Positions 862-62,584 of a stretch of DNA of 64,000 bases are shown one piece after another. The first letter of the stretch is position 1; the number at the start of each line of letters is the position of its first letter. Location of the stretch: assembly GCF_028641065.1 (NCBI RefSeq), contig NC_073384.1, forward strand, positions 20,460,001 to 20,524,000, written 5' to 3'. The stretch is from Leucoraja erinacea. Lineage: Eukaryota. The notes under the pieces are model-generated. The model had not been told where the DNA came from. It saw nothing but the letters and a program-made list of their open reading frames with translations, and ran no database searches. Both the position numbers and the translations under genes were made by a program.

Positions 862-1220
862 GTGTAGGAAGGAACTGCAGATGCTGGTTTAAACCGAAGA
901 TAGACACAACATGCTGGAGTAATTCAGCAGGAGAGGCATCATCTCTGAAGAGAAGGAATGGGTGACCTTTCTGGTCGAGACCCTTCTTCAGACCCATTGT
1001 CTCCAGAGGCACACAAAAATGCTGGAGAAACTCAGCGGGTGCAGCAGCATCTATGGAGCAAAGGAATCTTCGCTCCATAGATGCTGCTGCACTCGCTGAG
1101 TTTCTCCAGCATTTTTTTGTACCTTCGATTTTCCAGCATCTGCAATTCCTTCTTAAACACATAGTCTCCAGAGATTCTGCCTGTCCTGCTGAGTTACTCC
1201 AGAATTTTGTATGTATCTCA
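862..1220. mobile_element. Penelope-derived short foldback element, with a second-family foldback nested at about 1009-1159
   Basis: tgtaggaaggaactgcagatgctgg...gtcgagacccttcttcag arm; nested inverted arms at about 1011-1062/1069-1120; the nested insert is flanked by cattgtctccagag/catagtctccagag. Confidence 0.7.
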
Positions 1221-1780
1221 TTTCCTAAGGATGAATTCACGATCTTCCAATCTACCACCTTGATGCTCTTGCACTTTAAAAAAAATCTCCACTTTCTCTG
1301 TAGCTGTAGCACTGTATTTTGCACTATTTCCTAGCTCCCTTTGCACTGCCTGTTGTACTCATGTATCGTTTTATTGTACTCGTGTATGGTATGATTTCCC
1401 TGAATAGCATGCAAAAAAAAGTTTTTCTGTATTTCTGTATCAATAATAAAGCAATAACCATTCTCACTGCCTCCTCCTGAGATGCTCCTTTTCGAAGCAA
1501 TGGGCAGATAATGCAATACTGCAGCAAAGTCAAACCGACAAATAGTTAGTTTGTCAATAAGGCGGTCTTTTTTTTAATAAGATTGCTTTGAGATATAAAA
1601 AAGTCATAGTCATAGGAGGATACATTGTTGAAGGTGCATTGGGCTACTCCAATAGAACTTCTCACAGTCCTGACAACTACCACTCAATGTATATAAAATT
1701 ATAAAGCATTTGTAGAGTAGATAGTCTGAATCTTTTTTCCATGATCGGGATATTAAAAGCAAGATGGGATAGCTTTATGG

Positions 1781-2623
1781 TTAGTTTAGTTTAGTTTAGT
1801 TTAATTCAGAGATACTGCGCGGAAACAGGTCCTTCGGTCTACCGAGTCCACGCAGACCAACATTCCCCGCACATTAACACTATCTTACACACACTAGGAA
1901 CAGTTTACACATGCACCAAGCTAATTAATCTGCATACCTGCACGTCTTTGGCGTGTGGGAGGAAACTGAGGATCGCAGAGAAAACCCACACAAGACACAG
2001 GGAGAATGTACAAACTCTGCACCGACAGTGCCCGTAGTCGCAATCGAACCCGGTGTCTCCGGCGCTGCAAGCGCTGTAAAGGGCCTGTCCCACTTGGACG
2101 ACCTAATCCACGAGTTTAGAAGACCATAGACGAGTTGAAAAAAAAATCAAGGACGTGTTGACTCGCCAAAGTTAAAGATCTCCTACTACCTCCTACGACT
2201 ATGTCTACAATGTCTACGACCTCCTACGACCCCCCTCGATCTCAGTCTTCCACACCTAAGACCAACTACGACTAGCTACGAGTGGAAATGATCACATGAT
2301 AAAATGATGTCATGTTTGCATTTTTTTTCTCGGGCCAGTTACCGACCCACGACTATCTACGACACCCTACGACATCACGACCTACCTACGAGTAAAAAGT
2401 ATAAATTTTTTATCAGGCTGGAAAAAACTTTGCGACCTACTTGAGGCCACGAGTATGCGGCGACCACTCACGAGCATGAGGAAGAGTTACGAAGACCTCC
2501 TACGACCTCGTGGCAACCATGCTGCGAGTATGAGTCAAGGGCAAACTCGGCAGAGGTCGCCAATTAGGTCGTGAAAGTGGGACAGGGGCTTTAGGCAGCA
2601 ACTCTACCGCTGTGCCACCGTGC
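1781..2623 (-). mobile_element. HE1-like tRNA-derived V-SINE, interrupted by a Harbinger MITE
   Basis: (TTTAG)n tail at 1781-1803; reverse-complement tRNA-like head (gcacggtggcacagcggtagagttgctgcc) at about 2594-2623. Confidence 0.85.
2080..2590. mobile_element. Non-autonomous PIF/Harbinger MITE (511 bp)
   Basis: TIRs AGGGCCTGTCCCACTT / AAGTGGGACAGGGGCT; flanks TAA (2077-2079) and TTA (2591-2593); removing the element restores the SINE sequence gcgctgtaaggcagc; many internal TACGAC motifs. Confidence 0.8.
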
Positions 2624-3619
2624 GCCCTAGAAAAATGAGTTTTAAAGGGAACAAGAGAGGTACGTTTTTTACTCAGGGTGTGGTTGATATCTGGAACATG
2701 CTGCCAGAGGAGGCGCTATAATTAGATGCACACTATGTTTGAGAGGTATTTAGGCAAGCACTTGAATAGGCTAGGCAAAGGATATGGACCAAATATGGGC
2801 AAATGGGATTAGTGTAGATGAGCAAAAAGATCAGCACGGATGTGTCTGTGCTGTACAACCTTATGGCTGTATGAGTTATGGAAGGACAAAGGCGACAGGA
2901 ATATATAGGAACACCACACCTGCAAGGAACACACCATCCTGGCTGGAAAATATATAATCGGTCCTTCATTATAACTGCTTCCTTATCCTAAATGTCCCTC
3001 GTCAATAGCATTGAACAAGCACCTTCACTAAAAGGACCACAGCTGGTCAAGAAGGTACCCCACCACCACCTTCTAAGAGGCAGCTAGTGACGGGCAGTAA
3101 TTCCTGGTCCAGATCCTGTAAAATGAAATTAAAAGTAATCAGAGTTCATCTGGAGGTTGTTGTTGGTCCGTGTCGGAACTGACCCATGCGTTGCTCTGGT
3201 CAGACACTCAAATGAACAGCTCTATTGGGTCTGAGGAGGGTGGAAGTTGAGTAACAAGGCAGCTGTGAGTTGATGTTAAGAGGAAATGCTCCCGCTGACT
3301 CTGTTGCTTTCTTTGGAATGGAGGAAGTTTGATTTGGCTGCAGCCCTGTTTTTCAGAATTAGGAAGGAGGCTTGTAGCACAGATCCAGAACAAACTCTTC
3401 ACTATGTCAAAGTGGTTCAAATCCCGGCGGGGCTCAACTATGGAAGGGCAGAGTAGGGACCCATGTGGGTTTGAATTCTATTACGCAGGCCGATGTGTGA
3501 ATAAATTATGAGCCAGAGTCGGACGTTGAACCAATAGGTTTGGGAAGGGATGGCTGGGTTTCTGATAGGAATGAGGTGATGGTGTGGAAGGTCTGGATTA
3601 ACTGCAAGTTGTTCTGGTC

Positions 3620-3960
3620 ACTGGAGTACAGGAAGGCTGTGGAGGCCGAGTCAGTGAATATTTTTAAGGCAGAAGTAGTTAGATTCTTGATTAGTCCAGG
3701 TGTCAGGGGTTATGGGGAGAAGGCAGGAGAGTGGGATTGTGCACATCCCCAAAGCCTTTCCACTCATCACTTTAACTTCATGTTTCATGTATTTTGTGTT
3801 TTTTTATGACTGTTGGCAGATTAATTTCCCTTCTGGGATAAATAAAGTTATTTCGTATCGTATCGTATCGTAAGAGGGAAAGATTGGTCAGCTGTGATTG
3901 AATGGCGGTGTAGACTTGATGGGCCGAATGTCCAAATTGTGCTCTTCTCACTTATGACCA
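3620..3960 (+). mobile_element. CR1/HER1 3' end with an inserted Rex1/Babar-type tail
   Basis: ggctgtggaggccgagtcagtgaatatttttaaggcaga...tatggggagaaggcaggaga; inserted tail ends gggataaataaagtt(atcgt)n. Confidence 0.65.
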
Positions 3961-4418
3961 TGAACTCATGGAAGGAACTGATGGCATTCGAGAAACTTTG
4001 CTAAAATGGATCCAGCAGAAGATTAAGATCTATGAGGAAAGACTGCCTGTGCGGCGGTTCTTTTCTCAAGAATATAAAGACTGCGTGGAGTCTCAATTGG
4101 TGCATTAAGTTTTGAAAGGACAGAGTAGAGTGGATATTAAGCATAGTAAGGACCTTTTGCCCTCAGCTCAAAAACCAGGAGCTATTGAGTTTAGCTGGAG
4201 CTGTAGAGGGTTGTGGGGCTCGGGAACTTACCTCAGTGGAGGAAGGAGAAAAACCCTACAGTATATTTAACATGGAATTGGACAATCAGTTCATTCACAG
4301 GGACCCACAGGGGCAGCAGACTGATAGCTGGGTGGGGGTAATCATTATTAACATGGCTTTTTTTATGGGCAGAATAGACATAATGGACTGGGTGTGTGGT
4401 ATCCTTCCTCAAACCTTC

Positions 4419-7869: not shown

Positions 7870-10100
7870 TGGAATTTGGAGTCCCAGGAGTCACTGCTGG
7901 AGGACTTCAGAGCAGTATCCTTGGTTTAGCTGTCATTGGCTATTTCAGCAACAACCTTTCTTCCATCGCAGCGACAGACATGGGGATTTGCTGATGATTG
8001 TATGATGTTCAGCAAATGCCAGCATGTAGCAAGACCATGACAACATTCAGGTGTAGGCTGACAAATGACAAATCATTTTCAGGACACTAAACTCCCAGGC
8101 AATGACCATCGGAACTGGATAGCATGTGACAAAAGCTTTACACTGTACCTCGGTACACTGTACACATGACAATAAGCTAAACTAAACTGAACTAAATCAA
8201 TTCTAACTTACCCTTAACATTCAATGGCATCACTATTGCCAAGTCCCCCACCATCAATATCCTGGGGGTCACCACCAACCAGGTACTCATTTAGACCGAA
8301 GATAGACAAAAAATGCTGGAGTAACTCAGCGGGTCAGGCAGCATCTCTGTACAGCAGGTATCTACCTTCTTTCCAAATACTCTGCCTGTCCCGCTGAGTT
8401 TCTCCAGCATTTTGTTTATATTTCCGGTGTAAATGAGCATCTGCAGTTCCTTCCTACACATTTAGACCAGTTCTTGTAGTCATGGTATTTATTAGTCATA
8501 AATACCTTGACTATATGAGCAGGTCAGAAGCTGGATATTCTGCATTGAGTTACCCGTCTCCTGAACCTGAGCCCTTTCCACCATGTACAAGGCTCAAGAC
8601 AGGAAGGTGATGGAACACGTTCCTCGTCCCTGGACAACCACAGCTCCTACAACTCTCATGAATCTTGACACCATCCTGGACAAACCACCCTGGCTAATTG
8701 GCACCCCATCGAACACCCTACACCTTCATTACCTCCACTAGTCAAGCCCCAAGTTGGGTTGATTGTCATGTGCACAAGTACAATGAGGTACAGGCACAAT
8801 GAAAATCTTGTTTGCTGCAGCCTCAGGTACATACACACTATAATGCTGCAATTCTACATTCTTGTATTTTTCTCTTTCTCTTGGCACTAACTGTTGTACT
8901 TGCGTATAGCTTGATTGTCCTCATGTCTAGTATAATATGACTGGATAGCACACAAAACAAAGCTTTTCACTGTATTACAGTACACATGACAATTATAAAC
9001 CAACACCCAACAACATAAATTATACATCAATTATATTAGACAGTGAAGATAAAAATACTTTTACGAATAAAAACACGGTCTATAATGTTGTGTTGCTGAG
9101 CTATGATTCAAGTTATGCAGGTTGATTCAAAGGCCTGATAATTGTTGGAAAGTAGCTGTGATGTTGATTTTCAGCCTCCTGTACCTCCTGACCAACTGTA
9201 GCAACAAGCTGAGGGCCTTACCCGAATGGTGAGGATCTTGATGATAGATGCTGCCTTCTTGAGGCAGCACCTCATGTAGATGCTTTTGATGGTGGGGAAG
9301 GCTGTGCCCATGATGGACTGGGCTGTCCACCACTCTTGGCAGCCTCTTGCGTTCCTGTGCGTTGGAATTGCTGCACCAGGCCATGATGCAACCAACCCCA
9401 ACTACTGGTTGGGCGACATGGTGGCGCAGCGGTAAAGTTGCTGCCTTACACCACTTACATTGCCGGAGACCCTGGCTCGATCCGGACTACGTGCGCTGCC
9501 TGTACGGAGTTTGTACGTTTTCCCCGTGACCGCGTGGGTTTTCTCCGAGACCTTCGGTTTCCTCCCGCACTCCAAAGATATACAGGTATGTAGGTAAATT
9601 GGCTTTGTAAATGTAAAAATTGTCCCTAGTGTGTGTAGGATAGTACTGCGGGGATCGCTGGTCGGCTTGGACCTGGTGGGCCGAAGGGCCTGTTTTCGCG
9701 CTGTATCTCTAAACTAAACTAAACTACTGGTTCACAGTTACAGCAGTTGGAACCGTCCACTGCAGTCATTCATCCAGATTAGTCTCAACAACATCACCAC
9801 CTGCAGGTTCCCCTCCAAATCAGATACCATCCTGACTTGGAAATCAGCTGCCAGTCCATCGTTGTCACGGGATCTGAATAATGTCATAGAGAGATGCAGG
9901 ATCAAGTCTCAGGCCATCGAGATGCGCTGATCACCAGCCATCTTGGAACGTCCTCCACAACAGTACTGCAGGAACACCTCCATCAGAAAGATTGCAGCAG
10001 TTCAAGAGGACTGTTCACCATCGGCTCAAAGGCATTTAGGGATAAGCAATAAATACTGGCCTGCCAGCAATGCCCAGATACTGGAAAATGATTGAAAATA
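7870..10100 (+). mobile_element. Old CR1-like LINE fragmented by younger insertions (Penelope-derived 8292-8460, Rex1-like minus 8760-9400, SINE 9411-9725)
   Basis: RT-like remnants (tttgctgatgat, caacattcaggtgtaggctgacaaatg, atcctgggggtcacca); 3' tail at 9960-10100. Confidence 0.5.
9411..9725 (+). mobile_element. HE1-like V-SINE
   Basis: tRNA-like head, central V-domain-like region, (aaact)n tail. Confidence 0.85.
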
Positions 10101-11542
10101 AACTAGCGGGGGGCTGGGAAAGGAAACTGAAGCTGGTGAAAGTTAAACTGGAGGAGAATATCCCTGATCTGTGCAACTTTAGCCATTTGGAGGATGTGGG
10201 TATTGAACGAATAGTTGGCTATTAATAGCACTGCTAATCTTAGAGTACTCTCATAAAAAAAAGTAACAAGCGGAAAAATAATACCTTGTGGTCTCATGTT
10301 AGTGAGGAAGCACAGAGGGAACCAAACGGAGACAGGGGTTGGCATTGATGAATTGAAAGCCAGTTTGGACCTAAAAGATCTCATCTTTGCTGGGAAAATT
10401 AATGGGAGAGAGCGTACGGGGGGGTGAGAGCGGAGGCGGTGTATATTTGAGCCTTGGCTTATATTTGCTGGTCACAGAGTGTGTGTTGCACTGTTTGCTG
10501 GTTATCAGTAAACACTGTTCACTCTGTGCTTTTCTGAAACAAGCGTTGGGGTTTAAAAAGCAGGAGCCAGTGCCTTCTCTCTCACTGTTTGTGACGGCGC
10601 AGTACCAGGAGCTTAGCCCTCATAGATATTACCCGGCAGGAGCTGTGACATTTTTCCGTAGTGATGTAAAATGAATGATCACTGGTTTTAAACTCCCTTT
10701 TTCCAAGGCATCGGTGAGGGGAGGAGAGAGCGTCTGACGGGTTGCAGATACAGAATCGCTTGAGGTCAAAAGGCAAAACGACCTTGTTGCACTTTGCCTT
10801 CCATCCATGCTATTATGCGGCCTGATGTGTCCAGTTAATGATGCCGTGTCACCCCTTCATTGACCCAGGTTCAACCCTGACCTCCGGTTGTGTCTGGTAG
10901 GTTAACTGGATATTGTAAATTATAGATAAGTGATTAAAGATGTCAATGAGGAATTGATGGGAAAATGAGAAACACTGTAAGCTGGGGAAATACGGAGAAG
11001 TAAATGAGACAATTAAAGTAATTAAAATACATTTGGACAGGTACATAGATAGGAAAGTTCAGATGGAGATGGGTCAAACATGGGCAAATGGGACTAGCAT
11101 GGAGGGGCATGTTGGTTGGCATGGGCAAGTTGGGCTGAAGGGCATGTTGCTGTCATGCATTGCTTTATGACTCTGACTCCAAGATTGATGAGTTGCTCTT
11201 TTGGTGATTGGCACGAACTGGACGGGTTCTATAATCCCCTCGTCCTCAGTGTCAGGGAGGGGATTATAGAAAGACACAACATCATGGAAACGGGCCTTTC
11301 GGCCCACTGAGTCTGTGCTGCCCATCAAACACCCATTTACACTGTCAAGTCTTGTCGAGTTTATTGTCGAGTACTGTGAGGTCCAGGTACAATGAAAGTC
11401 TTGCTTGCAGTAACATCGCAGGTACACAAACAACATGCAGCATATAAATTGTACATAAATTATTTACTAAACCTTCTTTCCATACTTTTATGTTCTCCTC
11501 ACTCTCCCACCAATTTCCCCCAAAATACTACCATTCACCGGG

Positions 11543-11640
11543 CTGAAGAAGGGTTTCGACCCGATACATCACCTATTCCTTGTCTCCAGAGGTGCTGGCT
11601 GACGTGCTGAGTTACTCAACATTTTGTGTCTATATCTTCG
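11543..11640 (+). mobile_element. Penelope-derived short element starting at a degenerate hammerhead-like core
   Basis: ctgaagaagggtttcgacccgatacatcacc...gctgagttactc. Confidence 0.65.
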
Positions 11641-11984: not shown

Positions 11985-12200
11985 CAGTTGCTCTCATTTT
12001 GTGGAAACAAGGAACTGCATATGCTGCTTTACCACAAAAGGATACAACGTGCTGAAGTGACTCAGCGGGCCAGTCAGGGAGGACATGATAGGTTCCAACA
12101 TGAAGAAGGGACCCGACCTGAAATGTCACCTATCAATGTTCTGAAATGCTGCCTGACTCTTCACTCTCTGAATAACTCCAGCACTCTGTGTCCTTTTTAG
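11985..12200. mobile_element. Degenerate Penelope-derived foldback element
   Basis: gaaacaaggaactgcatatgctg...atgaagaagggacccgacctgaaatgtcacc...actccagcactctgtgtcct. Confidence 0.6.
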
Positions 12201-13545: not shown

Positions 13546-14100
13546 ATGATATGTGCCCGAAAAGGAAACAGCCAGGACTATTCAAGACACCATAGTATTG
13601 TGTGGCACACTTTGAATAATTCTCTTACAGATGTACAATGAAATCTTTTCAATCCCCATTAGAGAGTAGACGGTGGCTTCATTTTGTCATCTATCTTATA
13701 CTAAATGGAAAGTTAATCGTGTCTAGGAAAGAACTGCAGATGCTGGTTTAAATCGAAGGTAGACACAAAATGCTGGAGTACTGTAATTCAGCGGGACAAG
13801 CAGCATCTCTGGAGAGAAGGAATCGATGACGATTCGGGTTGAGACCCTTCTTCAGCACCCATTTAATGTGGAAGAATTTCTTCTCCCAGAAAATGGTGAA
13901 TCTTTGGAACTTTAGAGGGCTGTGAAGTCAAAACCATCAGCTACATTTAAAGACTGGGGAGGCAGATATTTGGTCTATAATGAGAGTCAAGTAGCATGGG
14001 TTACAGGCAGAAAAATTGAGCTGAGGACAAGATCAGCTCAGTCAAGGTCCTATTGAATGTCAGAGCAAGCTAGAGGGGCTGAATGGCCACTTTATTCTTA

Positions 14101-17202: not shown

Positions 17203-18149
17203 CCTGTACTAATCAAGATGTCAGGTGCAAAGCTGAAATAAATGACAAATTTATCATAAATTGTTGAAATCATCACTAATTCCAGAGGGCTTAGTCAGTG
17301 GATGAGGTGCTGTCCCTCAAACTTACAATGGGCTTTGGTGGAACAGTGTGGGAGGTCAAAGACAGTAGGCAGAGTGGGATTAGAATAGAGAACTATAGCG
17401 ACAAACAATTGGAACTGGGGTCAACCTTGTGGACTAAAGACAGAAATGCTCCAGAAAGGGGTTATCCAATCCGTAGCATTTGTTTTGTAAGTTAAGTAAG
17501 ATGCAGAAAATGCTGAAATATTCACCAGGTCAGGCAGTTTCTGTGAAATTAGAAAATGAGTTAATGTTTCAGGTCAGAGAATCATTCTTCAGAATTAAAA
17601 TGGGTTAATTTGCACCTTGTGGCGGAGGTGAGGTGAGTGAGGTGCCAGCCTCCCAACAGATGCATTGCGAGGTTGTATTCCTCCCCATTGGAGAAAACCC
17701 CTGAGGATGAGTAAGGTGCTGCCTAGATGTAGCTCCAAAGCACTGTGCCCTGTTATAGTGGGACTGGAGGCCATCCTCATGCAGAACTCTGGAGAGGATG
17801 TGAGCGCAGGGTTTGGTTAAGAGAGACTGGAGTCAAGAGTGTTTAATTGTCAAATGCAGAACAGAACAAGGCAATTCTTACTTGCTGCATCTTTACAGGC
17901 ATGTTAAAGATCAATACAACACATAAATATACAATAATCAACAATACAATAAATTATCGGTAATAAGACAGTATTATGCAAACCAAGTGCATAGTGCAAC
18001 CTAAACAAAGTCTATAGTAGATCGTTGCTGAGCTAAGGTTGTGGTTGGTGTTGTGCAGGGTGGTACAGGAGCCTGATGGTTGATCGGAAGGTGCTCTTGA
18101 ACTGGATGTAATGGTTCTCAGGCTCCTGCACCTTCCCGATGGTAGCAGC

Positions 18150-24457: not shown

Positions 24458-25598
24458 CGTTAGGTCCCAGCATCACATGGGAGGGCTGGTCACCCAACGC
24501 AATATTCCACCTCTCCACCAATTCCAATATTGCTGGCCAGTGGGGGGGGAGGGTTCTGTTGCGCTAGTTCGTACTATTTGTTATTTGTTGATCACACANN
24601 NNNNNNNNNNNNNNNNNNNNNNNNNNNNNNNNNNNNNNNNNNNNNNNNNNNNNNNNNNNNNNNNNNNNNNNNNNNNNNNNNNNNNNNNNNNNNNNNNNNN
24701 NNNNNNNNNNNNNNNNNNNNNNNNNNNNNNNNNNNNNNNNNNNNNNNNNNNNNNNNNNNNNNNNNNNNNNNNNNNNNNNNNNNNNNNNNNNNNNNNNNNN
24801 NNNNNNNNNNNNNNNNCATTCACACACACACACACAGACTCATTCACACACAGACACACACACACACACACACAGACTCATTCACACACAGACACACACA
24901 CACACAGACACATTCACACACACACACAGACTCATTCACACACACACGCAGACTCATTCACTCACACACACACACATACACACACACTCATTCACTCACA
25001 CACACTCACCCAATACTAAAATGCCAAGTAACTTCAGAGCGTGTTGAATATATAGTGAGTAAAACAAATGTTTAAAGCCTCATGTAGAGGCTGCTGGTGC
25101 TGAAGCAAAAACGTGCTTTAAATAACATCCAACAAACACACTCACCATAGACAGAGCAGTCAGCTCTCTTGAATTATTCAACGGCGCCTGCACTCAGTGC
25201 CATCTTGACGTCACCCTCTCGCTTCTTGCCACGAACCGGAAATGACACACTCAGCGCCAGATGCCGCTAACCGGAAATGACGTCATCTGCACCATCTTGC
25301 AACTAAGCGAAAATCACAGAATGAGCGCCAATTTTGAAATTAAACAATCCTCATCTAATAAAATGTTTATTCACGCTTTATCCATCCGAAAACTGTTGCA
25401 AGCAAGCCCTTTTAAAGCCAAGCCAATTAAACATTAATATCTCTCTGATTTTTCATCGATGGGAAAAATCCTCCAGTCCAGCGGAGGGGGGCTCTGAGCG
25501 AGGTGGCCAAAAATGACGGCCGTAAGTGGCAGCGTTCTCTCGGAAATCACATCGCAGTGAGTCAAAAGCGGTCAAGATCTTACTTTTAGTAATATAGA
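24458..25598 (-). mobile_element. Non-autonomous Helitron, 3' end missing, spanning an assembly gap
   Basis: Minus-strand 5' end TCTATATTACTAAAAG; inserted between A and T (ggcgata|ttttgggtcggg) with no TSD; no CTAG terminus. Confidence 0.65.
24818..25010. repeat. (CA)n-based compound repeat with agactcattc interruptions
   Basis: Seen directly; adjoins the N gap. Confidence 0.9.
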
Positions 25599-37600: not shown

Positions 37601-39139
37601 AGCCAAACTCTAAAAAAAATTGACAGTTATTAAAGGTCAAACGAATTGTGTCTCGTTTACAACTAGCAGACGAAAGGGCTCAGTGCTCTTTCTGTTCCCT
37701 CGCAACCAGTGGAGACACATTAAGGATATTGTTTACTCATTATCCGTGTGTTGGAAGCCTACAATTGGTCTTCAATGTTAAAGAACAATTGGATGAGATG
37801 CAAACGTTATTGAGGTTAATTACAGTCAGGCATCATACTATTTGATGAAATCTCACATATTAAATCAAACCATTAAAAACTCAGAGCTGACAGCTTGCGA
37901 TGCTGGTGTTCAATTAACAAAATGAATGTGTTGTTAGCTGTGGATCAGCTTGGAAATTATGGGAGTAGGTAAAACAAAGTGCGACAGGAAGACTGAGATC
38001 TCTCCTTTAGGAGTGATTCCTGAAGAAAGAACGGAGGGCAGCTTATTTGATATAGAACTACTTGGCACCAAGTGGGCCATTTGGTCTTCCATGCTAGCTC
38101 GTAAGGTTACAATTTGTCCCATTCTCTGTTCTTCAAGCACTTGCCAAACGTGTCCTTTTCCAGTACAACTCTCATTGCCCTTCGGAACGCATGTTAATGT
38201 GGCACCTTCAGCCCTCAAAGGTTGCAGTACATCTCTTACTCTGCGGTCTTGTCCGTCCGCAGTTTTCATTGCTCCACCACTGACTGCCTGGGCTCTCAGC
38301 TCCAGAACACCCCCTAATTTCTCCACCACTTTATCTTCCTTTGAGCACTCTTCAACCTTACCTCCTGGACCAGGTCTAGTGTATGTAGTCCAAAGAAGGA
38401 TTCCAACCAGAAGCGTTCTCCAGAGATGCTGCCTAACCCGCTGAGTTACTCTAGCATTTTACGTCCTTTTCTGGTGTCCAAAGATCTCTTTAAGCAGTCC
38501 GGTTGGGTTTGTTTAATGATGCGACTGTGGGGTATTTTGTTCCATTGGAGATCTGGATAAATGTTGATTGTCACAGAGACGTACAGCACAGAAAGAGGTC
38601 CTTCGACTCCATGCTGACCATCAAACACCCATTTACATTAATCCTGCGTTAATCCCATATTCCCATCATCTCCTCTCAGATTCTAGTACTCACCTACACA
38701 AAAGGGGCAATTTACTGATCAATTAACCTACTAACCTGCAAGTCGTTGGGATGTGGGAAGAAACCAGAACACCTGGAGAAAGCCCACACATTCACAGGTC
38801 GAATGTGCAAACACCACACAAGTGAGGCAGTATGAGGTTGCAGCTTCACTTGCAGTGCCACTAAGCCACTCCTACTCACCCTGAGTCTAGAACTCAATGT
38901 TAGAAAGATTGGTATAGGCAGAGACCCTATTTAAATAAAAAACAGGATAGCCCATATCTATCATTAAAATTGTTAGAGTTTTATAAAAGTTATAAAAGGT
39001 ATCTTTTGGTATAAAAATAAGTTATAAAAGGTATCTACATTGGCACACGTGACAATGATAAACCAACAAATACAAAGACAAGAGACTGCAGATGCTGGGA
39101 TATGGAGCAAAAAAAACAAACAAACCGATGGAGGAACTC

Positions 39140-39367
39140 GTAGGTTACACAAAAAAGCTGGAGAAACTCAGCGGGTGCAGCAGCATCTATGGAGCGAAGG
39201 AAATAGGCAACGTTTCGGGCCGAAACCCTTCTTCAGACGGAAGAAGGGTTTCGGCCCGAAACGTTGCCTATTTCCTTCGCTCCATAGATGCTGCTGCACC
39301 CGCTGAGTTTCTCCAGCTTTTTTGTGTAACCTTCGATTCTCCAGCATCTGCAGTTCCCTCTTAAACA
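39140..39367. mobile_element. Young Penelope-derived foldback insertion
   Basis: Essentially perfect inverted arms of about 92 bp (39143-39234 / 39240-39331); 14-bp TSD cgatggaggaactc (39126-39139, 39368-39381). Confidence 0.85.
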
Positions 39368-39389
39368 CGATGGAGGAACTCAGCAGAAA

Positions 39390-39829
39390 GACACAAAATG
39401 CTGGCGCAACTCAGCGGGTCAAGCAGCATCTCTGGAGAAATGAATCGGTGACGTTTCGGGTCGAGACTCTTCTTCAGGCTGAGAGTCAGGGGAAAGGGAA
39501 ACGAGATATAGGTGGGGAATTAGAGAGATCTACAACAAATGAATTAAAGATAGGCAAACATGTAACGACGATCAAGGAAAGGTGGAGTCCACAAGGGTCT
39601 ATTGTTGGCTGTAGACCAGGTGATAATGAGTTACACAGACAATGAAACTCAACAGGATGACAATGAAACTAGTGGTGTGGGAGGGACGGAGAGAGAGGGA
39701 ATGCAAAGATTACGTGAAATTAGCTAAATCAAAATTCATACGCTGTTGTAAACTGCCCAAGCAAAAGATGAGGTGCTGATGGTCCAATTTGCGTTTGGCC
39801 TCACTTTGACAATGGAGGAGGCCCAACAC
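39390..39829 (-). mobile_element. Penelope-like element 3' fragment: GIY-YIG ORF end, 3' UTR and hammerhead-bearing terminal repeat
   Basis: Minus 39829-39710 translates VLGLLHCQSEAKRKLDHQHLIFCLGSLQQRMNFDLANFT*, resembling the PLE GIY-YIG C-terminus (RKLEEQHLIFRLGSLQP-GMN type). Confidence 0.75.
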
Positions 39830-40224
39830 TTTGTCCCCTTCCCATCCCATATTGACCTACGAGGAGCTCGGCAGGCGAGGCAGCGTCTGTGGATGGGAAT
39901 AAACTGTTGATTATTCAGGAAGACATCCTTCATATTGTGTCATATTCATATCATATTCACATCCATGATCATATTGAATGGCAGTGCAAGCTCGTAGGGC
40001 TTTATTGAATGGCCTACTCCTGCACCTATTTTCTATGTTTCATTTGTATTGAAAGAGTATTAAATACTTGATTGAAGCATGCTTTTAGGCAGAGCAGGTG
40101 AGGCTGGTACAGTCTTGCATTTATTCAGGGCTTTCCACTGCTTCAGAGTGTCTCAGAGATCTGTATCCGAAAGAATGAAGTCATTATTTCCTGAATTAAT
40201 TTTGAAAGATCCATTAAGTATTTT

Positions 40225-41540: not shown

Positions 41541-41587
<47 letters not shown>

Positions 41588-42228: not shown

Positions 42229-42229
42229 G

Positions 42230-45697: not shown

Positions 45698-47643
45698 GTG
45701 CCGCCCACAATGCTGGGTAGATCCTGGATGAGCTGGGGGCTGACAGGTAAGCGGGGAAATAGAAATTAGGTTACAATTGGATCAGCCACGATCTTAATAA
45801 ATACTGAATAGGTTCAATCTGCTCCTAACTTGTATAGAACATAGAATAGTACAGCACAGGAAGTTTTTTTCAGCCCACAATTTCAATGCCGAACATAATA
45901 CCAAAGTAAGCTAATCCCTTTCACCAGCACACGGTCCATATCCCTCCTTTCACTGCATATTCATGTGCCCATGAGAGAGCGTTTTGAACACCACTATCGT
46001 ATCCACCTCGACCACAAGAAGTGGCAGCATATTCCAGACACCCACCACTCTCTGTGTAAAACTTGCCCCACATATCTCCTTTAAACTTTCTCCCTCTGAC
46101 CTGGTGATAATAAATTAAACTAAACTAAATTATCCTCAGAACCTATGCCCTATTCCTTCGGGGAATGATACTCTCAGCAATACCATTTAACATTTATATT
46201 AACATTAAATTAACATTTATACCATTTAATACCATTTAACAATTTAACAGAATCACCAAAAATTGTAGAGGAATATTGTCCCAGATCTCTCAATTTCTCC
46301 GGATGGAAGAACTCGCTACCCAGCGAGAAGTCACTAAGACTGAAAATCTCTTGACTTTCTCAGTTCTGGATGCCAGAATCCCCGTAGTGAGGCTGTGCTC
46401 AAAACTTTCATGACTCAGAGGTGAGAGTGCTCCCCACCGAGTCAAAAATGTAACGAACTAAATTGATATGGTTCCCAAAGCACCGGTCCAAACTCTCGAA
46501 TCCTGTATGATTACAATGGAATGGAATTGGTTCAGTTGCTGAAGTTAATGGCTCTAGCACTGGGCATGAAGTAGCTTTTTTCAGCACTTTTTGCTGGTTT
46601 TCAGATGGCCGTGCAGATTGTTGGCACTCGCACTTGACTGAGTACTAGTTTGTGCTTGTATTGATGGTGTGCAAAGAGCATTCATTTACATGTTACAGCA
46701 CAAAAGGCCATTCAGCCCATCATTTTGATACCTGCTTCAAATCATATCAGCCCCATTCTCCTCTCCTTATTTCCCTGTACCCCTGAACTCTGTCGCTCTC
46801 ACACATCGTAGAAACAAGGAACTGCAGACCTGGTTACACAAAGGGACACAAAATGCTGTAGTAACTCAGCAGGACATATTTGGAGAACATGAGTCAGTGA
46901 TGTTTTGGGTCGAAAGAAGGGTCCCAACCTGACACGTCACCTTTCCATCTTCTTCAGAGATGCTGCTTGACCGGCTGAGTAACTCCAGCACTTTGTGTCT
47001 GTCACACACATGTTTATCAACTCAGCTTTGAATCTTTTTGCCATTATCCTTCACTAATGGGTAATTGCTCAAGCTACAGGAGGTTGAGAGGACCTGAAGT
47101 TAATATGGAGGCTGAGGGGGAGACCTTATGGATGTTTATAAAATGATGCAAGGCATAGATAGTCTAGACAGTCCCCTGGGGCAGAAATATCAAATAATAG
47201 GGGGCATAGCTTTAAGGTCAGAGGGAGAAAGTTTAAAGGAGATATGTGGGGCAAGTTTTACACAGAAGAGTGGTGGGTGTCTGGAATATGCTGCCACATC
47301 TTGTGGTTGAGGCGGATACAATAGTGGTGTTCGAGAGGTTTTTGTCATGGGCACATGAATATGCAGTGAATGGAGGGATATGGTCCATGTGCTGGTGGAA
47401 GGGATTAGTTAAATTTGGCATCATGTTCGGCAATGAAATTGTGGGCTGAAGTAACTATTCCTGTGCTGTACTATTCTATGCTCTGTACAAGGACGGAGCA
47501 GATTAAACCTATTCTGTATTTATTAAGGTCCTGGCTGATCCAATTGTAACCTAATTTCTATTTTCCTGCTTACCTGTTGGAACTTTCAGCCCCCCCGCCC
47601 CCTCCCAGCTCATCCAGGATCTACCCAGCATTGTGGGAGGCAC
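45698..47643. repeat. Inverted duplication, arms 45698-46102 and 47215-47643
   Basis: Arms align in reverse complement across several repeat junctions. Confidence 0.85.
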
Positions 47644-51481: not shown

Positions 51482-51484
51482 TGT

Positions 51485-53324: not shown

Positions 53325-53712
53325 ACTTTAGAGTTACAGCATGGGATTAGGCCCTTCGGCCCACCGGGTCCATGCTGACCCACGATCACCCTGTACTAGC
53401 ACTCTCCTACACACTAGGGTCTGAAGAAGGGTTTTGGCCTGAAATGTTGCCTATTTCCTTCGCTCCATAGATGCTGCTGCACCCACTGAGTTTCTCCAGC
53501 TTTTTTGTGAACCTAGGGACAAATTACAATTTTACTGAAGCCAATTAACCTACAAACCTGTACATAGTTGGAGTGTGGGAAGAAACCGGAGCACCCAAAG
53601 AAAACTCACGCGGTCACAGGGAGAATGTACAAACACTGTACAGACCGCACCTCTGGTCAGAATCGAACCCGGGTATCTGCTGCTGTAAGGCAGCAATTCT
53701 ACCACTGCACCA
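53325..53712 (-). mobile_element. HE1-like V-SINE interrupted by a Penelope-derived segment (53420-53512, +)
   Basis: Insert starts tctgaagaagggttttggcctgaaatg and is flanked by the direct repeat ctaggg (53414-53419, 53513-53518). Confidence 0.8.
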
Positions 53713-54671: not shown

Positions 54672-54890
54672 AGGTAGACACAAAAAGCTGGAGTAACTCA
54701 ATGCGACAGGAGAGAAGGAATGGGTGACGTTTCGGGTCGAGACCCTTCTTCAGACCCGATGACACCTTCTCCTCCACCCGAAACGTCACCCATTCCTTCT
54801 CTCCAGAGATGCCGCCTGCCCCGCTTTGTTACTCCAGCTTGTTGTGTCTATCTTCGGTTTAAAGCAGCATCTGCAGTTCCTTCCTACACA
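54672..54890. mobile_element. Penelope-derived foldback element
   Basis: gtagacacaaaaagctggagtaac...ggtgacgtttcgggt / acccgaaacgtcacc...ttactccagcttgttgtgtcta. Confidence 0.75.
54720..54757 (-). ncRNA. Minimal type I hammerhead-ribozyme-like motif (best-preserved copy)
   Basis: Minus strand GGGU-CUGAAGA-A-GGGUC(UC)GACCC-GAAA-CG-UC-ACCC: catalytic boxes, stem II, short stem I, palindromic ACGU stem III. Confidence 0.6.
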
Positions 54891-55420
54891 AATCCACTAC
54901 AGACGTCAACTCTGGCAGCACCGGGACATGAATGGTGACGGGACAAGCGAGTTCCGTCTTTTAATAGGTAATATCAAGGAACTGCAGATGCTGGTTTCTA
55001 AATTCATAAGTTCCAGGAGCAGAATTCGGCCATTTGGCCCATCAAAGAAAGCTGGGGAAAGGCTCCCGACCCGAAAACGTCCCGCATTCATTTTCTCCAC
55101 CGATACTGCTTGCCTGACCTGCTGAGTTACTCCAGCGTTTTGTCATAGAGTGATAGTGTGGAAACAGGCCCTTCGGCCCAACTTGCCCACAACCGTGTCC
55201 ATCTTTAGTCTGTTAATAGCTCGTCTCCTTTCTGCAGTTCGCAGTGACCCTCTGCCCACGCTCCGTCATCTGTCTGGTTGATTCGATGCTTCATCCCCAC
55301 ATTGCTATTCTTAAGAAGTAAAATCATCACAATTGACCGGCGCCGCCCCTCAGCAAGTCGACCAACATTCCTTCCCTCCCCTCCTCCCCTCCGCTCAGTG
55401 AGTTCAGATATGGAACAGTA

Positions 55421-55452
55421 CTGAAGACGGGTCCCGACCCGAAACGTCACCC
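55421..55452 (+). ncRNA. Minimal hammerhead-ribozyme-like motif
   Basis: CTGAAGA-C-GGGTC(CC)GACCC-GAAA-CG-TC-ACC. Confidence 0.55.
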
Positions 55453-55859
55453 GTTCCTTCTCTCTAGAAGCCTGTTCTGCTGAGTGTCTAGCTCCTGATT
55501 TTTGTGTCTAACTTCGATTTAAACCAGCATCTGCAGATCCTCCCTACATATGGGAGAGTACGGGACAGGAATAGGCCCTTCGATCCACGATGTATGCGCT
55601 GCACATACAGTTATGCCAATTTAATTTCATCCGCCGGCTCATGATCCATATCCCTTCACTCCCACATATCGGTGAAATCCTGTTTCTTTGCATTGCATTT
55701 GGAGTGTCTCACATTAGAAGTATATTTTGTCCGACATTAGTTTTGTAGTTTTGCATTGTAAGAATTTTTCTTGATAGATGTTCCGTAAAGACCATGTGTG
55801 TAAAGTTGACTGGACTCTACAGTCTTGTTGGCCTGTGGCAGTATGAAGTGCTCTGATCT

Positions 55860-57187: not shown

Positions 57188-57861
57188 GAGCCTCTCGAGA
57201 TCCAAGATCTGGAATCTTCTTCCTAAACTCTTCAGATTCTTGGTTTCTTCTGTATGTCTCCTTCCACGTCATGTTTTTGTCCAAATGTTTTGGTCACCTG
57301 CCTTGTTACCTCATCATGGGTCAACATGACATTGTTTATTGGATGAAGCTGCCCAAAAGCAGACATTCCAGTGCTCTACAGATGGACCGCAAATGTGAAT
57401 TATTATTATGATTTTCTCTTTCTGTTCCTGCTAATCTGTTTTTTAGTTTAAGATAAACAAGAGCACCCTACAGTCAGCTGGGGCTTGAAAATATGTAAAC
57501 ATACTGTAAAATTGATGAATGCAATAAAATATTGCAGCACACCCCTGTTGCATGTTTCAATAATGATTCAAGCCAAGTCAAGTCAAGAGTTTAATTGTAA
57601 TTGATATTTTCAGTCTAACCTGCTTTTGCTGTCACTTATGACAATACCCAAGTCACCATGTGAAGAATTTTGTATTGTCATAGGCACCAGAAATGGAACA
57701 ATGAAATTCGTACTTGCTGCAGAGAACTCTAAGTTTCTCAAACACAACAACCAAAAATACAATAAATAATAATACAATAAATGATCAGTTATGTTGGGTA
57801 ACCAGACCATAGCAGTGCATGCCAAAGTACATACTGCAACGTTAAACAAGGTCCATAATAG

Positions 57862-58060
57862 GACATAAAGTGCTGGAGTAACTCAACAGGCCAGGCAGCA
57901 ACTCTGGAGAACATGGATAGGTGACGTTTTGGGTCAAGACCCTTCTTCAGGGTCCGTGGTGACCTGAAATGTCACCTATTCATGTTCTCCAGAGATGTTG
58001 CCTGACCTTGCCTGAGTTACTCTGACACGTTGTGTCCTTTTGTGTATTAACCAGCATCTC
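57862..58060. mobile_element. Penelope-derived foldback element
   Basis: ctctggagaacatggataggtgacgttttgggtc / gacctgaaatgtcacctattcatgttctccagag. Confidence 0.7.
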
Positions 58061-58454
58061 CCATTCCTTGTTTCTGCAAGGTTTATAGTAGTTTGGCACT
58101 GAAGTAGGGTTGTGGTTAGGACTGTGCAGTGTGGTTCAAGAGCATGATAGTTGATGGGAAGAAGCTGTTCTTGAACTTAGAGGTACCAGTTCTCAAGCAC
58201 TTGCACTTTTATTCCTAATGGTAGCAACGAGATGAGAAGGTGGCCCATTAATGATATTATCTGTCGCCTTTAGGCAGGGATTCCTATAGATCCCTTCCAT
58301 AGTGGGCAGGTCAGTACCCATAATAAACCGAGCAGTGTCCACCACTTTTTGCAAGCTTCTATTTAAAGCACTGCAGTGTAATGTAACTAAGCTTCCTTAC
58401 AACACCTTATATTCTTGTTTTCCACCAACCCTTCTCAGATTCTACCACTAAGGG

Positions 58455-58822: not shown

Positions 58823-59049
58823 ACAATTTACAGCATCCAACTAACCTATCAATCCGCATGTCTGACATGTGGGAGGGAAGTGGAGCATTTGAGGAAGACC
58901 CACATGGTCACAGGGAGCACATGTAAACTCCACACCAACAGCATCTGGAGTCAGCTTCGAACCTGGGTCACTGTAGTTGTGAGGGACAAGTTCGACCAGC
59001 GATGACACGGTTAGTCCTTTTTTGAACAGGATTAGTCAGATTAGATATA

Positions 59050-59325
59050 GTAGGGTCTTGACCCGAAGCGTCACGTCACCCATTCCTTCTCTCCAGAGAT
59101 GCTGCCTGTCCCGCTGAGTTACTCCAGCTATTTGTGTCTACCTTTGATTTAAACCAGCATCTGCAGTTCTTTCCTACACAGATGTAGGGAAGATGTCGAA
59201 ACAAAGAACTGCAGATGCTGGTTTACCAAGGAAAGACACAAAATACTAGGGTAACTCAGCGGGTCAGGCAGCATCCCTGGAGAATATGTATAGGTGACGT
59301 TTTGGGTCGGGACCTTTCGTCAGCG
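59050..59325. mobile_element. Two Penelope-derived elements, tail to tail
   Basis: Plus copy 59052-59180; minus copy 59198-59323, whose core reads ctgacgaaaggtcccgacccaaaacgtcacc. Confidence 0.7.
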
Positions 59326-60612: not shown

Positions 60613-60831
60613 CGAAGACTGGGTTCAATGTTTAAAAATAAGGGTCATCCATTTAAAACAGATGAAGGGAGGACTTTCTCTTAGAACCGCCTTCACCAAG
60701 GGATGGTGGAAGAGTTTTTGAGTATTTTTTGTAGCAGAGGCAGGTAAATTCTTGATAAGCAGAAGAGGGAAAGGTTACTGGATGTAGGCAGGTTTGCAGA
60801 GTTAAGGTTAAGAAATGATTTCATTGAATTG

Positions 60832-61170
60832 GTGGCATGACAGTGCAGTGAATAGAGCTGCTGCCTCACAGCATAGGAGTCCTGAGTTCAATCCTGATCA
60901 CGGATGCTGTTCGTGCTCAGTTTGCATGTTCTACTTGTGTCCTCGGGTCCTCCAGTTTCCTCCTACATCCCAAAAAGATACGTGGGTCAGTAGGATAATT
61001 AGCTGTTGTAAATTGCCACAAGTGTGTAGGTGAGGGATGGAATCTGGGAGGAGTTGATGGGAATGCGGGGAGAATGAAAATTGAATCTAGGATCAGTGTA
61101 AATAAGTGGTTGAAGGTGAACACGGACCCGGTGGGCCGAAGAGCCCGTTTCCATGCTGTGTCACTCCATG
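60832..61170 (+). mobile_element. Older V-SINE
   Basis: ggcatgacagtgcagtgaatagagctgctgcctcacagc...gagttcaatcctga. Confidence 0.7.
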
Positions 61171-61689
61171 GCTGCATGAATAGCAGGGCAGAATCCTGGG
61201 GCTGAGAGGCCTACTCTTGCTTCTAATTTCTATGATTAAAAATACTGAATTTAAAAATCCTTACGGTGCAGTGGTGAGATTTGAACCTGCGGCCTCTTGA
61301 TTGCCACCCTGTGATGTCATCACCACTTTATCCGCAGAGCTTTCACTAAACACCTGCAAATGTGGTGGCGTGTGGGAAATGCCACCTGGGTTGATAATAA
61401 CCAGTTTGACCTCAAAAGGTGCTGTTTTCCAGATGACATCAGGGATTGTTATGTAAGGATTCCCCGCCCTGGTGGAAAGGTTAACATTTACCTTGACTGG
61501 GAGCCACACACCCTGCCTCAGTAACACTGTTTTATCACAGTTACACCTCGCTCGGTAACACCCTCGCCACCTGTTCTGAGGTGCGGAGTAGAGGAAGTCT
61601 TTGTGTTAAATAATTCAGAGATCGTGGCTGTGGTGAGTATTGTAGATTTTTATTTAAACTTACAGTTTGAGACTTCTATTGGATTCTTG

Positions 61690-62060
61690 GGAGGCGGAGG
61701 GGAGGATGCTCCTCAAACTGCAGAGCATCTTGGACAATACAGCTCATCCCCTCCATGACACACTGGTCAACCTGAGGAGTACCTTCAGCAACAGACTGGG
61801 TCTACCAAGATGGAGGACAGAATACCACAGGAGATTCTTCTTCCCTGAGGCTATCAAACTGTACAACTCCTCCCCCTTCTGTCGTGGGGTAGACTGAGGC
61901 TGGCTGGCCCCCCCCCCCCCCCCCCCCCCCCCCACGCCCAATCTTTGCAAATCCCCAATTCTTTCCACTCATCACTTTAATTTCATGTATTTTGTGTTTT
62001 AATGACTTGGCAGATCAATTTCCCTCCTGGGATAAATAAAGTTCTATTGTATCATATCTA
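61690..62060 (+). mobile_element. Rex1/Babar 3' end
   Basis: KLQSILDNTAHPLH...RRFFFPEAIKLYN; tail gggataaataaagtt. Confidence 0.8.
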
Positions 62061-62584
62061 TTGGACTCAGACACATGTGCATGGTCTAAAGTGAAAGTTG
62101 GAAACAAAAACTAAAAATGCTGAAAATACTCTGCAGGTCAGGCAGCATCTGTGAAAAGAGAAACAAACTTAATGTTCAAAGTTGAAAACCGTTCATCAGA
62201 ATCGGGTGGAGAAAACAAGCTGGTCTTATGCTGGTGAGTGGGTGTGGTGGAGAAACAAATAGAGGGAATATCATATGGTCATAGTGGGCTGAATGGCCGC
62301 TTCCTGTGCTGTATAACTCCGATAGGTTGCAGCCAGGATTGTCACTGGGATAAGTTGTAGGTAGAGTTGTCCAGTCGATAGTTTATTGATGGAAGCAAGA
62401 GAGAGCATGAAATATGGAACACTAAAGCTAGGAAGGTAGTTAGCCTGTTGTTTCTTAATGCTCTCGAGGCACGTTTTGCTATGCTAAAGACATCATGGAA
62501 ATAAATTGATGTAAATGAAAACTTTTCTTCTTGGGCAAGGCTCCTCAATTTACAGGGAATATATTGTGCTAAAAAGGCCTTGGG

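Follow-up and report, generated by a model that had tools for sequence, protein, structure and literature searches.

Hammerhead-like motifs recur along a 64,000-nt stretch of the Leucoraja erinacea genome (GCF_028641065.1, NC_073384.1, positions 20,460,001-20,524,000 of the forward strand; hereafter the window), which raises the question of what carries them, how they came to be scattered and whether they could cut host transcripts. The answer that we hold with good confidence is that they are 95-135-nt end-pieces of a Neptune-related Penelope-like retrotransposon, each led by a minimal type I hammerhead, and that the copies in the window are likely dead remnants.

A dispersed family of hammerhead-led repeats

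The eleven sites named in an earlier note on this DNA, identified by the position of C3 (minus 991, 13855, 30298, 39236, 39477, 54753, 57950 and 59323; plus 11543, 53421 and 55421), were all verified, each presenting CUGAnGA, a stem and then a GAAA-CG-U-H box or a decayed version of it. A profile built from 10 named copies returned 47 matches in the window at E<=10, 39 of them at E<0.01, whereas the same profile on the reversed window, as a control, returned three (best E 1.1). A minimal-hammerhead descriptor found five sites against a mean of 0.285 (maximum 2) in 200 dinucleotide shuffles. A covariance model found 14 sites in the window at E<0.001, 12 of which belonged to its training set; this is one site per 4.6 kb, which bears out the proposed density of one copy per 4-5 kb. 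Three families (A, B and C) are told apart by diagnostic letters, with the cleavage triplets as previously described, GUC in families A and C and GUU in family B. The copies and associated features are collected in Table 1.

Table 1. Repeat copies and associated features, in window positions
Feature	Position	Strand	Remarks
Penelope-like RT/GIY-YIG polyprotein, final ~40 codons with stop; insertion truncated at 5' end	39710..39838	-	tblastn 46-59% identity to P0003-P0011
Pseudo-LTR spacer, ORF stop to hammerhead core	39478..39709	-	TATAT 39506-39510; initiator-like TCAG(T) ending at 39478-39482
Hammerhead-led element body	39385..39477	-	full core; one stem II mismatch; helix I absent
Second copy with upstream pseudo-LTR	25598..25784	-	74% over 174 nt to 39477 copy; TATAT at 35 nt upstream of C3; broken and shortened core
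Solo copy, family C	30205..30302	-	formally complete, as is one other motif: full core, stem II, helix I of 4 pairs
Head-to-head pair, family A	54672..54890	both	minus arm 54672-54757, motif complete, C3 at 54753; tail on plus arm 54775-54890; target duplication 9-of-10 at 54659/54888
Head-to-head pair, family B (GUU)	39140..39367	both	arms 99% identical over 97 nt; plus-arm tail; 14-bp target duplication at 39126/39368
Head-to-head pair, family A	860..1217	both	minus arm 860-991 with tail; plus arm 992-1008 + 1164-1217, starting at base after cleavage site (992)
Nested family B pair	1009-1163	both	splits family A pair 860..1217; 10-bp target duplication 999/1164
Head-to-head pair, family C	11998..12195	both	minus arm starts at base after cleavage site (12086); plus-arm core broken
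Head-to-head pair without hammerhead cores	8298..8458	both	plus-arm tail; 10-bp target duplication 8288/8459
Head-to-head pair, family C	46806..47002	both	broken core; minus-arm tail
Head-to-head pair, family C	57859..58078	both	minus arm C3 57950, G12 to A
Solo copy	11539..11633	+	broken GAAA and palindrome
Solo copy with tail	13716..13859	-	broken GAAA box; 8-nt inverted piece before C3
Solo copy, family B	53417..53513	+	within another short repeat; CpG loss broke palindrome
Solo copy, family A, with tail	55418..55550	+	full core and stem II; helix I absent
Two copies, tail to tail	59049..59324	both	plus 59049-59183 without CUGA; minus 59195-59323, G12 to A
Decayed copy, family C	38389..38468	+	internal deletion
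Older, AT-rich relative, heavily decayed	17504..17593	-	
Other heavily decayed relatives	124-153(-), 36815-36921, 52855-53007, 62114-62201(-), 31248(+)		

Architecture of the motif

The assignment to the minimal type I hammerheads of Penelope-like elements stands, as the layout equals the consensus in Fig. S3 of PMC4209133 and is joined to an ORF (see below). An extra base lies between A9 and G10.1, and helix II is closed by G10.1-C11.1 (G-C in 15 of 20 rows, G-U in 3). The palindromic positions 15.1-16.1 provide no monomer helix III; they read ACGU in the majority line and in related loci, supporting the claim that this palindrome is unable to close stem III in a monomer. The stem II variants of families A and B differ by a one-sided change from U-A to U-G. 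The five-pair GGGTC/GACCC stem of the earlier note would leave a 2-nt loop; the stem has four pairs and a 4-nt loop (CUCG, UUCG or CCCG). The supposed tolerance at N7 leans on isolated, decayed examples: in 59323 a G12-to-A change is present as well, while 31248, without GAAA and palindrome, is missed by the profile and, at E<=1, by the covariance model.

Helices I and II are paired in 87.1% of cells, and their covariation is 0.530, where shuffles gave 0.237 and slid controls no more than 0.184. Between the window and distant relatives, core letters are preserved and helix letters are changed on both sides.

The core is intact in the majority line of the copies and in the read majority, yet of the 17 core-bearing copies just 5 have every core letter together with ACGU, the other 12 being broken in core or palindrome. 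Full stem II is present in four of the five, and two of these four (30298 and 54753) have a helix I of at least three pairs; copy 12099 fails the intact-motif test under either anchoring. Native helix I appears to have two pairs, as judged from two copies with native upstream sequence and from the read majority, a sample that excludes the upstream of families A and B, and a helix I of 4-7 pairs occurs only where junction or target sequence provides the strand.

Link to a Penelope-like element

The Penelope affiliation, merely assumed in the earlier note, is now shown at the sequence level through an ORF link. A 41-residue frame lies 233 nt upstream of C3 39477(-), the sole copy in the window to join motif and ORF (1 of the 47 profile matches); end-pieces are far more numerous. 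All five HMMER matches of this frame and its one word-search match are elasmobranch proteins, and through elasmobranch intermediates its relatives include proteins with RVT_1 and GIY-YIG; direct BLASTP against full-length P0012 gives a weak match (33% over 24 residues, E 0.015). By pattern test, the Neptune-type zinc-finger linker CX2-5CxxC precedes the nuclease in five of six related proteins (P0012 has ADKG), the window's own ORF fragment being too short to contain it. Of 37 related loci that include the ORF end plus the following 500 nt, 13 have this motif at a distance of 92-141 nt from the ORF, and in 24 it was not found by the descriptor. Together with window copy 39477, these 13 loci place the hammerhead in the pseudo-LTR of an RT/GIY-YIG element. 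The motif letters of the related loci match the Acropora digitifera Neptune hammerhead (PMC4209133 Fig. S3), and the assignment to Neptune-type relatives rests on the linker and this likeness.

Upstream of the motif, TATA[AT] is found 28-45 nt before C3 in both window copies having upstream sequence (background 3.0%) and in 19 of 26 motifs of related loci (background 4.0%), these 19 deriving from about three element families. Fourteen of the 16 copies that reach C3 end within about 5 nt of it, and by 30-50 nt upstream depth drops about 34-fold in reads and 85-fold in contigs. The TATA-like box and initiator-like site suggest an RNA start for the element some 3 nt ahead of the core. The putative start-site bases double as splice-acceptor-like sequence: the initiator-like stretch at 39478-39482(-) is readable also as a pyrimidine tract plus AG, and the read majority at 39478(-) is T.

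Insertion pattern and proposed origin of the short pieces

Penelope-type features found among the copies are 5' truncation, head-to-head inversion, an optional 30-40-bp tail at one end and short target duplication. The tail is limited to one arm in all eight young head-to-head pairs, and target-site duplications measure 10, 10, 14, 9-of-10 and 7-of-8 bp. Head-to-head pairs, one-sided tails and target-site duplications are, to judge from these junctions, the textbook insertion pattern of such elements. Of 32 arms, about half have variable 5' ends within the unit, and two start exactly at the base after the cleavage site, a detail that tells against the explanation preferred here.

Beyond layout, ORF link, insertion hallmarks and decay pattern, all documented here, we infer the following mechanism of origin. 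A promoter within the pseudo-LTR, its TATA-like box lying about 30 nt ahead of an initiator-like site, likely sets the RNA start some 3 nt in front of the core. The element protein would then initiate reverse transcription internally, probably at either of two positions, some 90 and some 130 nt downstream; internal priming has been shown in vitro for the Anolis element (PMC11167929). Synthesis of cDNA from such a site back to the RNA 5' end would yield exactly such tiny pieces, often head-to-head and with the tail on one arm. Without a promoter, the pieces would be transcribed only passively, within host transcripts on either strand, and would then decay neutrally. The ribozyme of the parent element would need a second copy to cleave, given its ACGU palindrome, and probably also the element's protein, because native helix I seems to have only two pairs.

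An extension of this mechanism, which we regard as distinctly unlikely, is that the Neptune-type hammerhead, at the transcript's extreme 5' end and 3-7 nt behind a TATA-driven start, cuts in the germline with the element protein, the two cleavage-site arms being fossil prints of such cuts; fold-back junctions with a long helix I could add a few host-cutting ribozymes. If so, in vivo cleavage would be recorded across the genome in the 5' ends of its very many copies, a record that would settle the role of Penelope hammerheads.

Activity in host RNA

The suggestion that the copies could affect host pre-mRNAs is poorly supported, given broken cores or missing helix I in most copies, CpG decay, unfavourable folding and no host gene shown, and the variation quoted as fitting the hammerhead fold is largely neutral decay within the window. 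CpG sites decay fastest (29/120 changed against 103/1027 at other sites, p 3e-5). Changes are somewhat rarer at core letters than elsewhere (10/150 against 89/775, p 0.08; stem II 4/102), a comparison biased by the choice of copies with a recognisable core and by family differences that inflate the rest. The predicted probability of stem II is at most 0.03 in a 400-nt context for 7/7 copies, and for 3/3 copies both two separate monomers and the best co-fold are more stable than the active dimer as modelled, energies that leave out Mg2+, tertiary contacts and protein help such as the Anolis ribozyme needs. In polyA RNA of a relative the repeat is abundant (17,596 of 7,335,232 reads on a 631-nt stretch), and the read majority retains GAAA-CG-UC and stem II (loose-end majorities of 1881, 984 and 1061 reads). 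A pile-up was seen neither of starts nor of ends in these reads (run X21), fragmented polyA RNA-seq from a relative being a weak test for cleavage ends. The window copies are likely dead and without cutting activity on host RNA, and there is no good sign of effects on host genes.

Alternative explanations

That the dispersed copies are working ribozymes, dimerising and cutting host pre-mRNAs across the region, appears very improbable. Copies 30298 and 54753 satisfy every formal feature, and the intact read majority and abundance in polyA RNA would suit such activity, but these two copies lie 24 kb apart, and the apparent helix I strand of 54753 derives from stem II, as an inverted piece of 6 nt, and is in competition with it. 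The same-strand full-core copies 39236 and 39477 are separated by 241 nt; however, one has no helix I and a stem II mismatch, and the other lies inside a 97-nt, 99% inverted repeat. The breakage in 12/17 copies, the CpG-type decay and the missing end pile-up also count against activity, as do published minimal motifs that cleave weakly as dimers and not at all as monomers (PMC4209133), an Anolis hammerhead that does not cleave without protein (PMC11167929) and Xenopus dimers of which 8/9 failed to cleave (10.64898/2026.07.22.740005). Chance likeness within an ordinary repeat is scarcely credible, being already refuted by the position of the motif and by the conservation of its core to distant relatives with helix letters altered on both sides. 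In its favour, the hammerhead family was absent from the 16 Rfam matches at E<=10, the gathering threshold not being reached, and many copies represent one multiplied event, so shuffle counts overstate significance. Rfam likewise misses the published minimal motif in 7/7 related loci, however, and its miss is therefore uninformative.

Two further proposals concern the boundaries of the pieces. The sharp 5' boundary might be a 3' splice site, an upstream exon ending in GG(G) completing helix I of a splice-gated ribozyme and the short copies coming from spliced RNA, a reading that deserves mention but seems rather unlikely. Upstream, the native sequence is a pyrimidine tract whose final CAG stands one base short of the helix I strand, GGG occurs within 5 nt before C3 in 7/14 copies (background 3.8%), and for Drosophila virilis, where such splice gating has been sketched, an intron end at helix I is described (PMC4209133 Fig. 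2C legend). Beyond GGG/GT, however, the 14 copies share no exon-like sequence; the Gs in 991, 54753, 46911 and 13855 belong to the element, where they terminate an inverted piece, and those of 53421 may come from the target. No splice-type joint at this boundary was found among 15 listed of 459 joints, and the TATA-like box at promoter distance is present also in relatives without AG there. It is improbable, too, that the 95-135-nt unit is a SINE-like or retrozyme-like element, multiplying through its own hammerhead and borrowed Penelope protein. The excess of pieces over ORF-linked copies, the three families with diagnostic letters and the proposal that retrozymes are non-autonomous Penelope derivatives (10.64898/2026.07.22.740005) speak for this. 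Against it, the unit was not found as a tandem array in any of 23 TRF rows, nor was a tRNA head found; the pieces do not include the upstream promoter-like sequence, and their variable 5' ends fit truncated cDNAs.

Relation to known elements

The window copies come closest to the minimal type I hammerheads (min-HHR) that Cervera and De la Pena (2014, PMC4209133) described from Penelope-like elements of metazoans, the nearest listed example being Acropora digitifera Neptune. Shared traits are CUGANGA, one extra base, a G-C closed 4-pair helix II with a 4-nt loop, GAAA-CG-U-H, palindromic ACGU, a pseudo-LTR location behind the RT/GIY-YIG ORF, and mostly single, scattered, truncated copies with some opposite-strand near pairs. 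Native helix I appears to have two pairs in the window, as it does in D. virilis, in contrast to three in coral-type relatives and 3-6 in most motifs of that study; parts 1-2 of 3 of its species list (supplement file 2) name no cartilaginous fish. Poseidon PAc of Anolis carolinensis (Frangieh et al. 2024, PMC11167929) likewise has a pseudo-LTR hammerhead, two 3' ends 30-40 nt apart (the tail) and no RNA-seq ends at the cleavage site; it belongs to another clade, and its ORF starts in stem II, whereas the window unit has an open frame in family A only. Internal priming and protein-assisted cleavage, shown for PAc, would apply to the window element by inference.

Adineta vaga Penelope families (Arkhipova et al. 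2013, PMC3846280) share head-to-head inverted ends, for which self-priming has been proposed, a one-sided tail, 8-10-bp target duplications and a putative TATA box and initiator within the pseudo-LTR. Their copies, however, are mostly ORF-bearing with pseudo-LTRs of about 200 bp, whereas those in the window consist almost entirely of the final 95-135 nt. Non-LTR retrozymes (PMC7229834; bioRxiv 10.64898/2026.07.22.740005) are also non-coding, Penelope-related carriers of type I hammerheads scattered in vertebrate genomes, but they form head-to-tail tandem units of 150-450 bp with mostly canonical hammerheads, in contrast to the minimal motif without tandem arrays seen here.

The function of Penelope hammerheads is described as still open (10.1101/2021.04.23.441226). 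With the skate copies, a motif class reported in 2014 from some 40 animal species gains an example from a cartilaginous fish, and one of the commonest short repeats of the skate genome is explained. At one motif per 4-5 kb they constitute a large sample, and the distribution of their 5' ends could show by computation whether cleaved RNA ever serves as template and where RNA of the element begins.

Distribution and architecture of the motif

The hammerhead-like core reported in the earlier note is present at all 11 positions named there: CUGAnGA, then a stem, here of 4 pairs, then GAAA-CG-U-H or a decayed form of it. A profile built from 10 copies gave 47 matches at E<=10 in the 64-kb window, 39 of them at E<0.01, compared with 3 weak matches in the reversed window, and a descriptor search returned 5 sites against a mean of 0.285 in 200 shuffles. 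Fourteen sites reach E<0.001 under a covariance model, including 12 that belong to the model's own training set. Rfam returned only sub-threshold miRNA-like matches to inverted pairs in the window and did not detect the hammerhead motif; it also misses the published minimal motif in the related loci described below. Exact motif scans gave 0 loci in each of the viral, metagenome and GTDB contig sets.

Three young families (A, B and C) differ in the letters that follow the cleavage triplet and in those of the tail, the extra 3' stretch, and older AT-rich relatives lie beside them. The suggested division of cleavage triplets between subfamilies is borne out, with GUC in families A and C and GUU in family B. 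Two other structural proposals had to be abandoned: a 5-pair stem II would leave a 2-nt loop, the actual stem having 4 pairs closed by a loop of 4 nt; and the variation at N7, taken as a sign of tolerance, was rejected as evidence of selection because it comes from single broken copies, namely 59323 (G12 to A) and 31248 (without GAAA), copies being named by the position of C3, the first C of the core. An open frame across the unit, considered as an ORF start, is open in family A copies only and was rejected as a general feature.

Association with a Penelope ORF

Upstream of copy 39477(-) lies a 233-nt spacer, 174 nt of which are common to copy 25622 at 74% identity, and then a frame ending at 39710. 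In a search of 1.84 billion proteins, the 41 residues of this frame gave five matches, which belong to whale shark, little skate and a second skate species; the frame also matches a skate DCC isoform containing the same piece. These matches make a skate or a close relative the probable source of the window. A GIY-YIG motif is visible in one of the five, and a search with that protein returned 7 proteins. RT and/or GIY-YIG polyproteins make up six of the seven, among them a protein of 902 residues in which both domains score above Pfam cut-offs; the direct match of the 39477(-) frame to it is weak. When RT/GIY-YIG relatives were used in tblastn, their C-terminus was located at 39716-39838 (46-59% identity). 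The CX2-5CxxC linker, which marks Neptune and Nematis according to 10.1101/2021.04.23.441226, occurs in 5/6 related proteins.

A second, faint piece of ORF C-terminus (tblastn, 37.5% over 40 residues, E 0.002) lies close to an old, decayed copy. On the minus strand it follows that copy, so the two are not in ORF-then-motif order. The Penelope ORF C-terminus also occurs in two skate proteins annotated as host genes, one a DCC isoform (P0002, residues ~1300-1325) and the other a neuromedin-U receptor (P0005, C-terminus), which suggests exonisation or mis-annotation.

Relatives and helix covariation

An alignment of the related proteins, used as the query, retrieved 80 of 440 metagenome stretches, together with 8 from GTDB contigs. 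Among the 37 loci with an ORF end and 500 nt beyond it, the same minimal hammerhead occurs in 13, at a distance of 92-141 nt past the ORF, and the commonest motif has the letters of the Acropora digitifera Neptune element (Fig. S3, PMC4209133). Across 12 window copies and 8 related-locus motifs, 87.1% of the cells of helices I and II are paired, and covariation is 0.530 compared with 0.237 in shuffles (0/500 as high) and at most 0.184 in slid controls, in a set of few lineages and hence few independent events. Within the window families, stem II changes are one-sided. A protein scan of viral contigs yielded 6 candidates, 0 of which were confirmed.

Close to the short 3' end, 79-90 nt past C3, letters resembling TTTTGTGT are found in six related loci (L005, L008, L032, L044, L051 and L077) and in window copies 39477, 39236 and 53421. 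They are common to the window family and the coral-type relatives and are possibly a conserved priming-site signal. Loci L081-L087, hammerhead-bearing Penelope elements of animal type, come from contigs assigned to two bacterial MAGs in GTDB; these bins are therefore probably contaminated with host DNA.

Insertion pattern and probable origin of the short pieces

The unit is ~95 nt long, or ~135 nt with the tail, which is restricted to one arm in 8/8 young head-to-head pairs. Five young pairs have target duplications (10, 10, 14, 9-of-10 and 7-of-8 bp) and two show no convincing one. Head-to-head pairing, a one-sided tail and target duplication are hallmarks of Penelope-like element insertion, as described in 10.1101/2021.04.23.441226 and PMC3846280. 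In one case a family B pair is nested within an older family A pair, so that B was inserted after A. Copy 53421 is inserted in one copy of a second short repeat, of ~280 nt, listed among the window features below.

Of the copies reaching C3, 14/16 stop within ~5 nt of it, start positions of 0 being partly fixed by references that begin at C3, with upstream bases checked separately. Depth drops steeply upstream of C3 in reads and in contigs, although contig depth gives no copy number. The native upstream sequence, represented by two copies and the read majority, allows only 2 pairs in helix I; copy 991 shows 7 pairs, but there helix I is formed by the other arm of its inverted pair and was rejected as native sequence. 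In the same native sequence, TATAT precedes C3 by 33 and 35 nt, and TCAGT, which resembles an initiator, ends at -1. These upstream bases could instead form a splice acceptor, an improbable reading beside the TATA[AT] found 28-45 nt before C3 in 19/26 related-locus motifs against a background of 4.0%, a count that represents about three families after prior removal of one doubtful row (L079) of 27. A putative TATA box and initiator are described for rotifer-element pseudo-LTRs in PMC3846280; for D. virilis, a TATA-less internal promoter is described.

On the promoter reading, transcription of the element RNA would start ~3 nt before the hammerhead core, and such a start, combined with internal priming at two sites, as described in PMC11167929, would yield promoterless cDNAs of 95 and 135 nt. 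GGG precedes C3 in 7/14 copies against a background of 3.8%; it is the end of an inverted element piece in four cases, as would be expected from fold-back priming, and in one more the target may have supplied it. Arms starting exactly after the cleavage site number 2/32, which is only a hint of a trace of cleavage because the complementarity of helix I is in itself a source of microhomology at that point.

Prospects for ribozyme activity

Every core letter and the ACGU palindrome are intact in 5/17 core-bearing copies; four of the five have a full stem II, and two of these also have a helix I of at least 3 pairs. In an alignment of 15 copies, changes affect 29/120 cells at CpG sites compared with 103/1027 at other sites (p 3e-5), and 10/150 in the non-CpG core compared with 89/775 for the rest (p 0.08); how the copies were chosen, together with differences between families, biases the latter comparison toward the core. 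Predicted stem II probability is at most 0.03 in 7/7 copies with 200 nt of flank per side. In 3/3 copies, both two separate monomers and the best co-fold are more stable than the modelled active dimer (for 54753, dimer, monomers and co-fold: -20.3, -25.4 and -32.1 kcal/mol, respectively), with energies that leave out Mg2+, tertiary contacts and protein.

In polyA RNA reads of a relative (run X21, ~6% of the run), 17,596/7,335,232 records align to window 39240-39870; they are mostly <95% alike and therefore come from other copies. Across the short unit the two mate directions are about equally common, and across the ORF end their ratio is about 1:2. No site of many molecule starts or ends was found in these reads, which make a weak test. 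A search of sequencing runs gave no RNA run for window 36500-44000, a result with no bearing on expression. The absence of end pile-ups agrees with three reports: a lack of cleavage-end reads in Anolis, where the ribozyme did not cleave unless protein was present (PMC11167929), low dimer activity of minimal motifs (PMC4209133) and active dimers in 1/9 (10.64898/2026.07.22.740005). Since the read majority keeps an intact core, the parent elements had one too.

Host sequence and other repeats

No host gene was found by Pfam in 277/345 stop-free frames of at least 62 residues, 68 low-complexity or repeat-overlapping frames being omitted; weak LINE RT/endonuclease and proline-rich matches were obtained, none above cut-off, and small exons would escape such a search. 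The two long pyrimidine-rich stretches listed below could be promoter or first-exon regions of a host gene.

Features of the window
Feature	Position	Remarks
Nested pairs, B within A	999-1173	10-bp duplication
Faint ORF C-terminus	17247-17366(-)	
Old decayed copy	17504-17593(-)	
ORF C-terminus	39716-39838	
LINE fragments with RT and endonuclease remnants	18273-19055, 42557-43670, 48004-48803, other sites	D2-D6, D11, D13-D15; weak Pfam; presumably CR1-type
Second abundant short repeat, ~280 nt	1805-2083, 6690-6968, 14191-14373, 19613-19877, 53539-53689, 56927-57175, others	D5, D7-D9, D16, D17; presumably a SINE
Long pyrimidine-rich low-complexity stretches	20279-21064, 48788-50320	Merge into GC-rich sequence
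Assembly gap	49489-49701	Beside pyrimidine-rich stretch

Comparison with known hammerheads

A retrozyme identity was ruled out, as the window holds no tandem units, which set the element apart from retrozymes as defined in PMC7229834. No report of a minimal PLE hammerhead in cartilaginous fish was found in the literature searched, and the 2014 species list, in the portion of the PMC4209133 supplement available, includes none; Repbase or Dfam may already hold these families, and 10.64898/2026.07.22.740005, which sampled one chondrichthyan, has supplements that may bear on novelty. In zebra shark, a related protein (P0010) continues through the pseudo-LTR, and its end peptide, SLMKGLRPKRQ, resembles the window-motif translation SLKKSLDPKRH, a hint that sharks carry this hammerhead too. 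The window motif has a helix I at the short end of the range of PLE minimal hammerheads; judged by the sequence features tested, it is such a hammerhead and would work like one.
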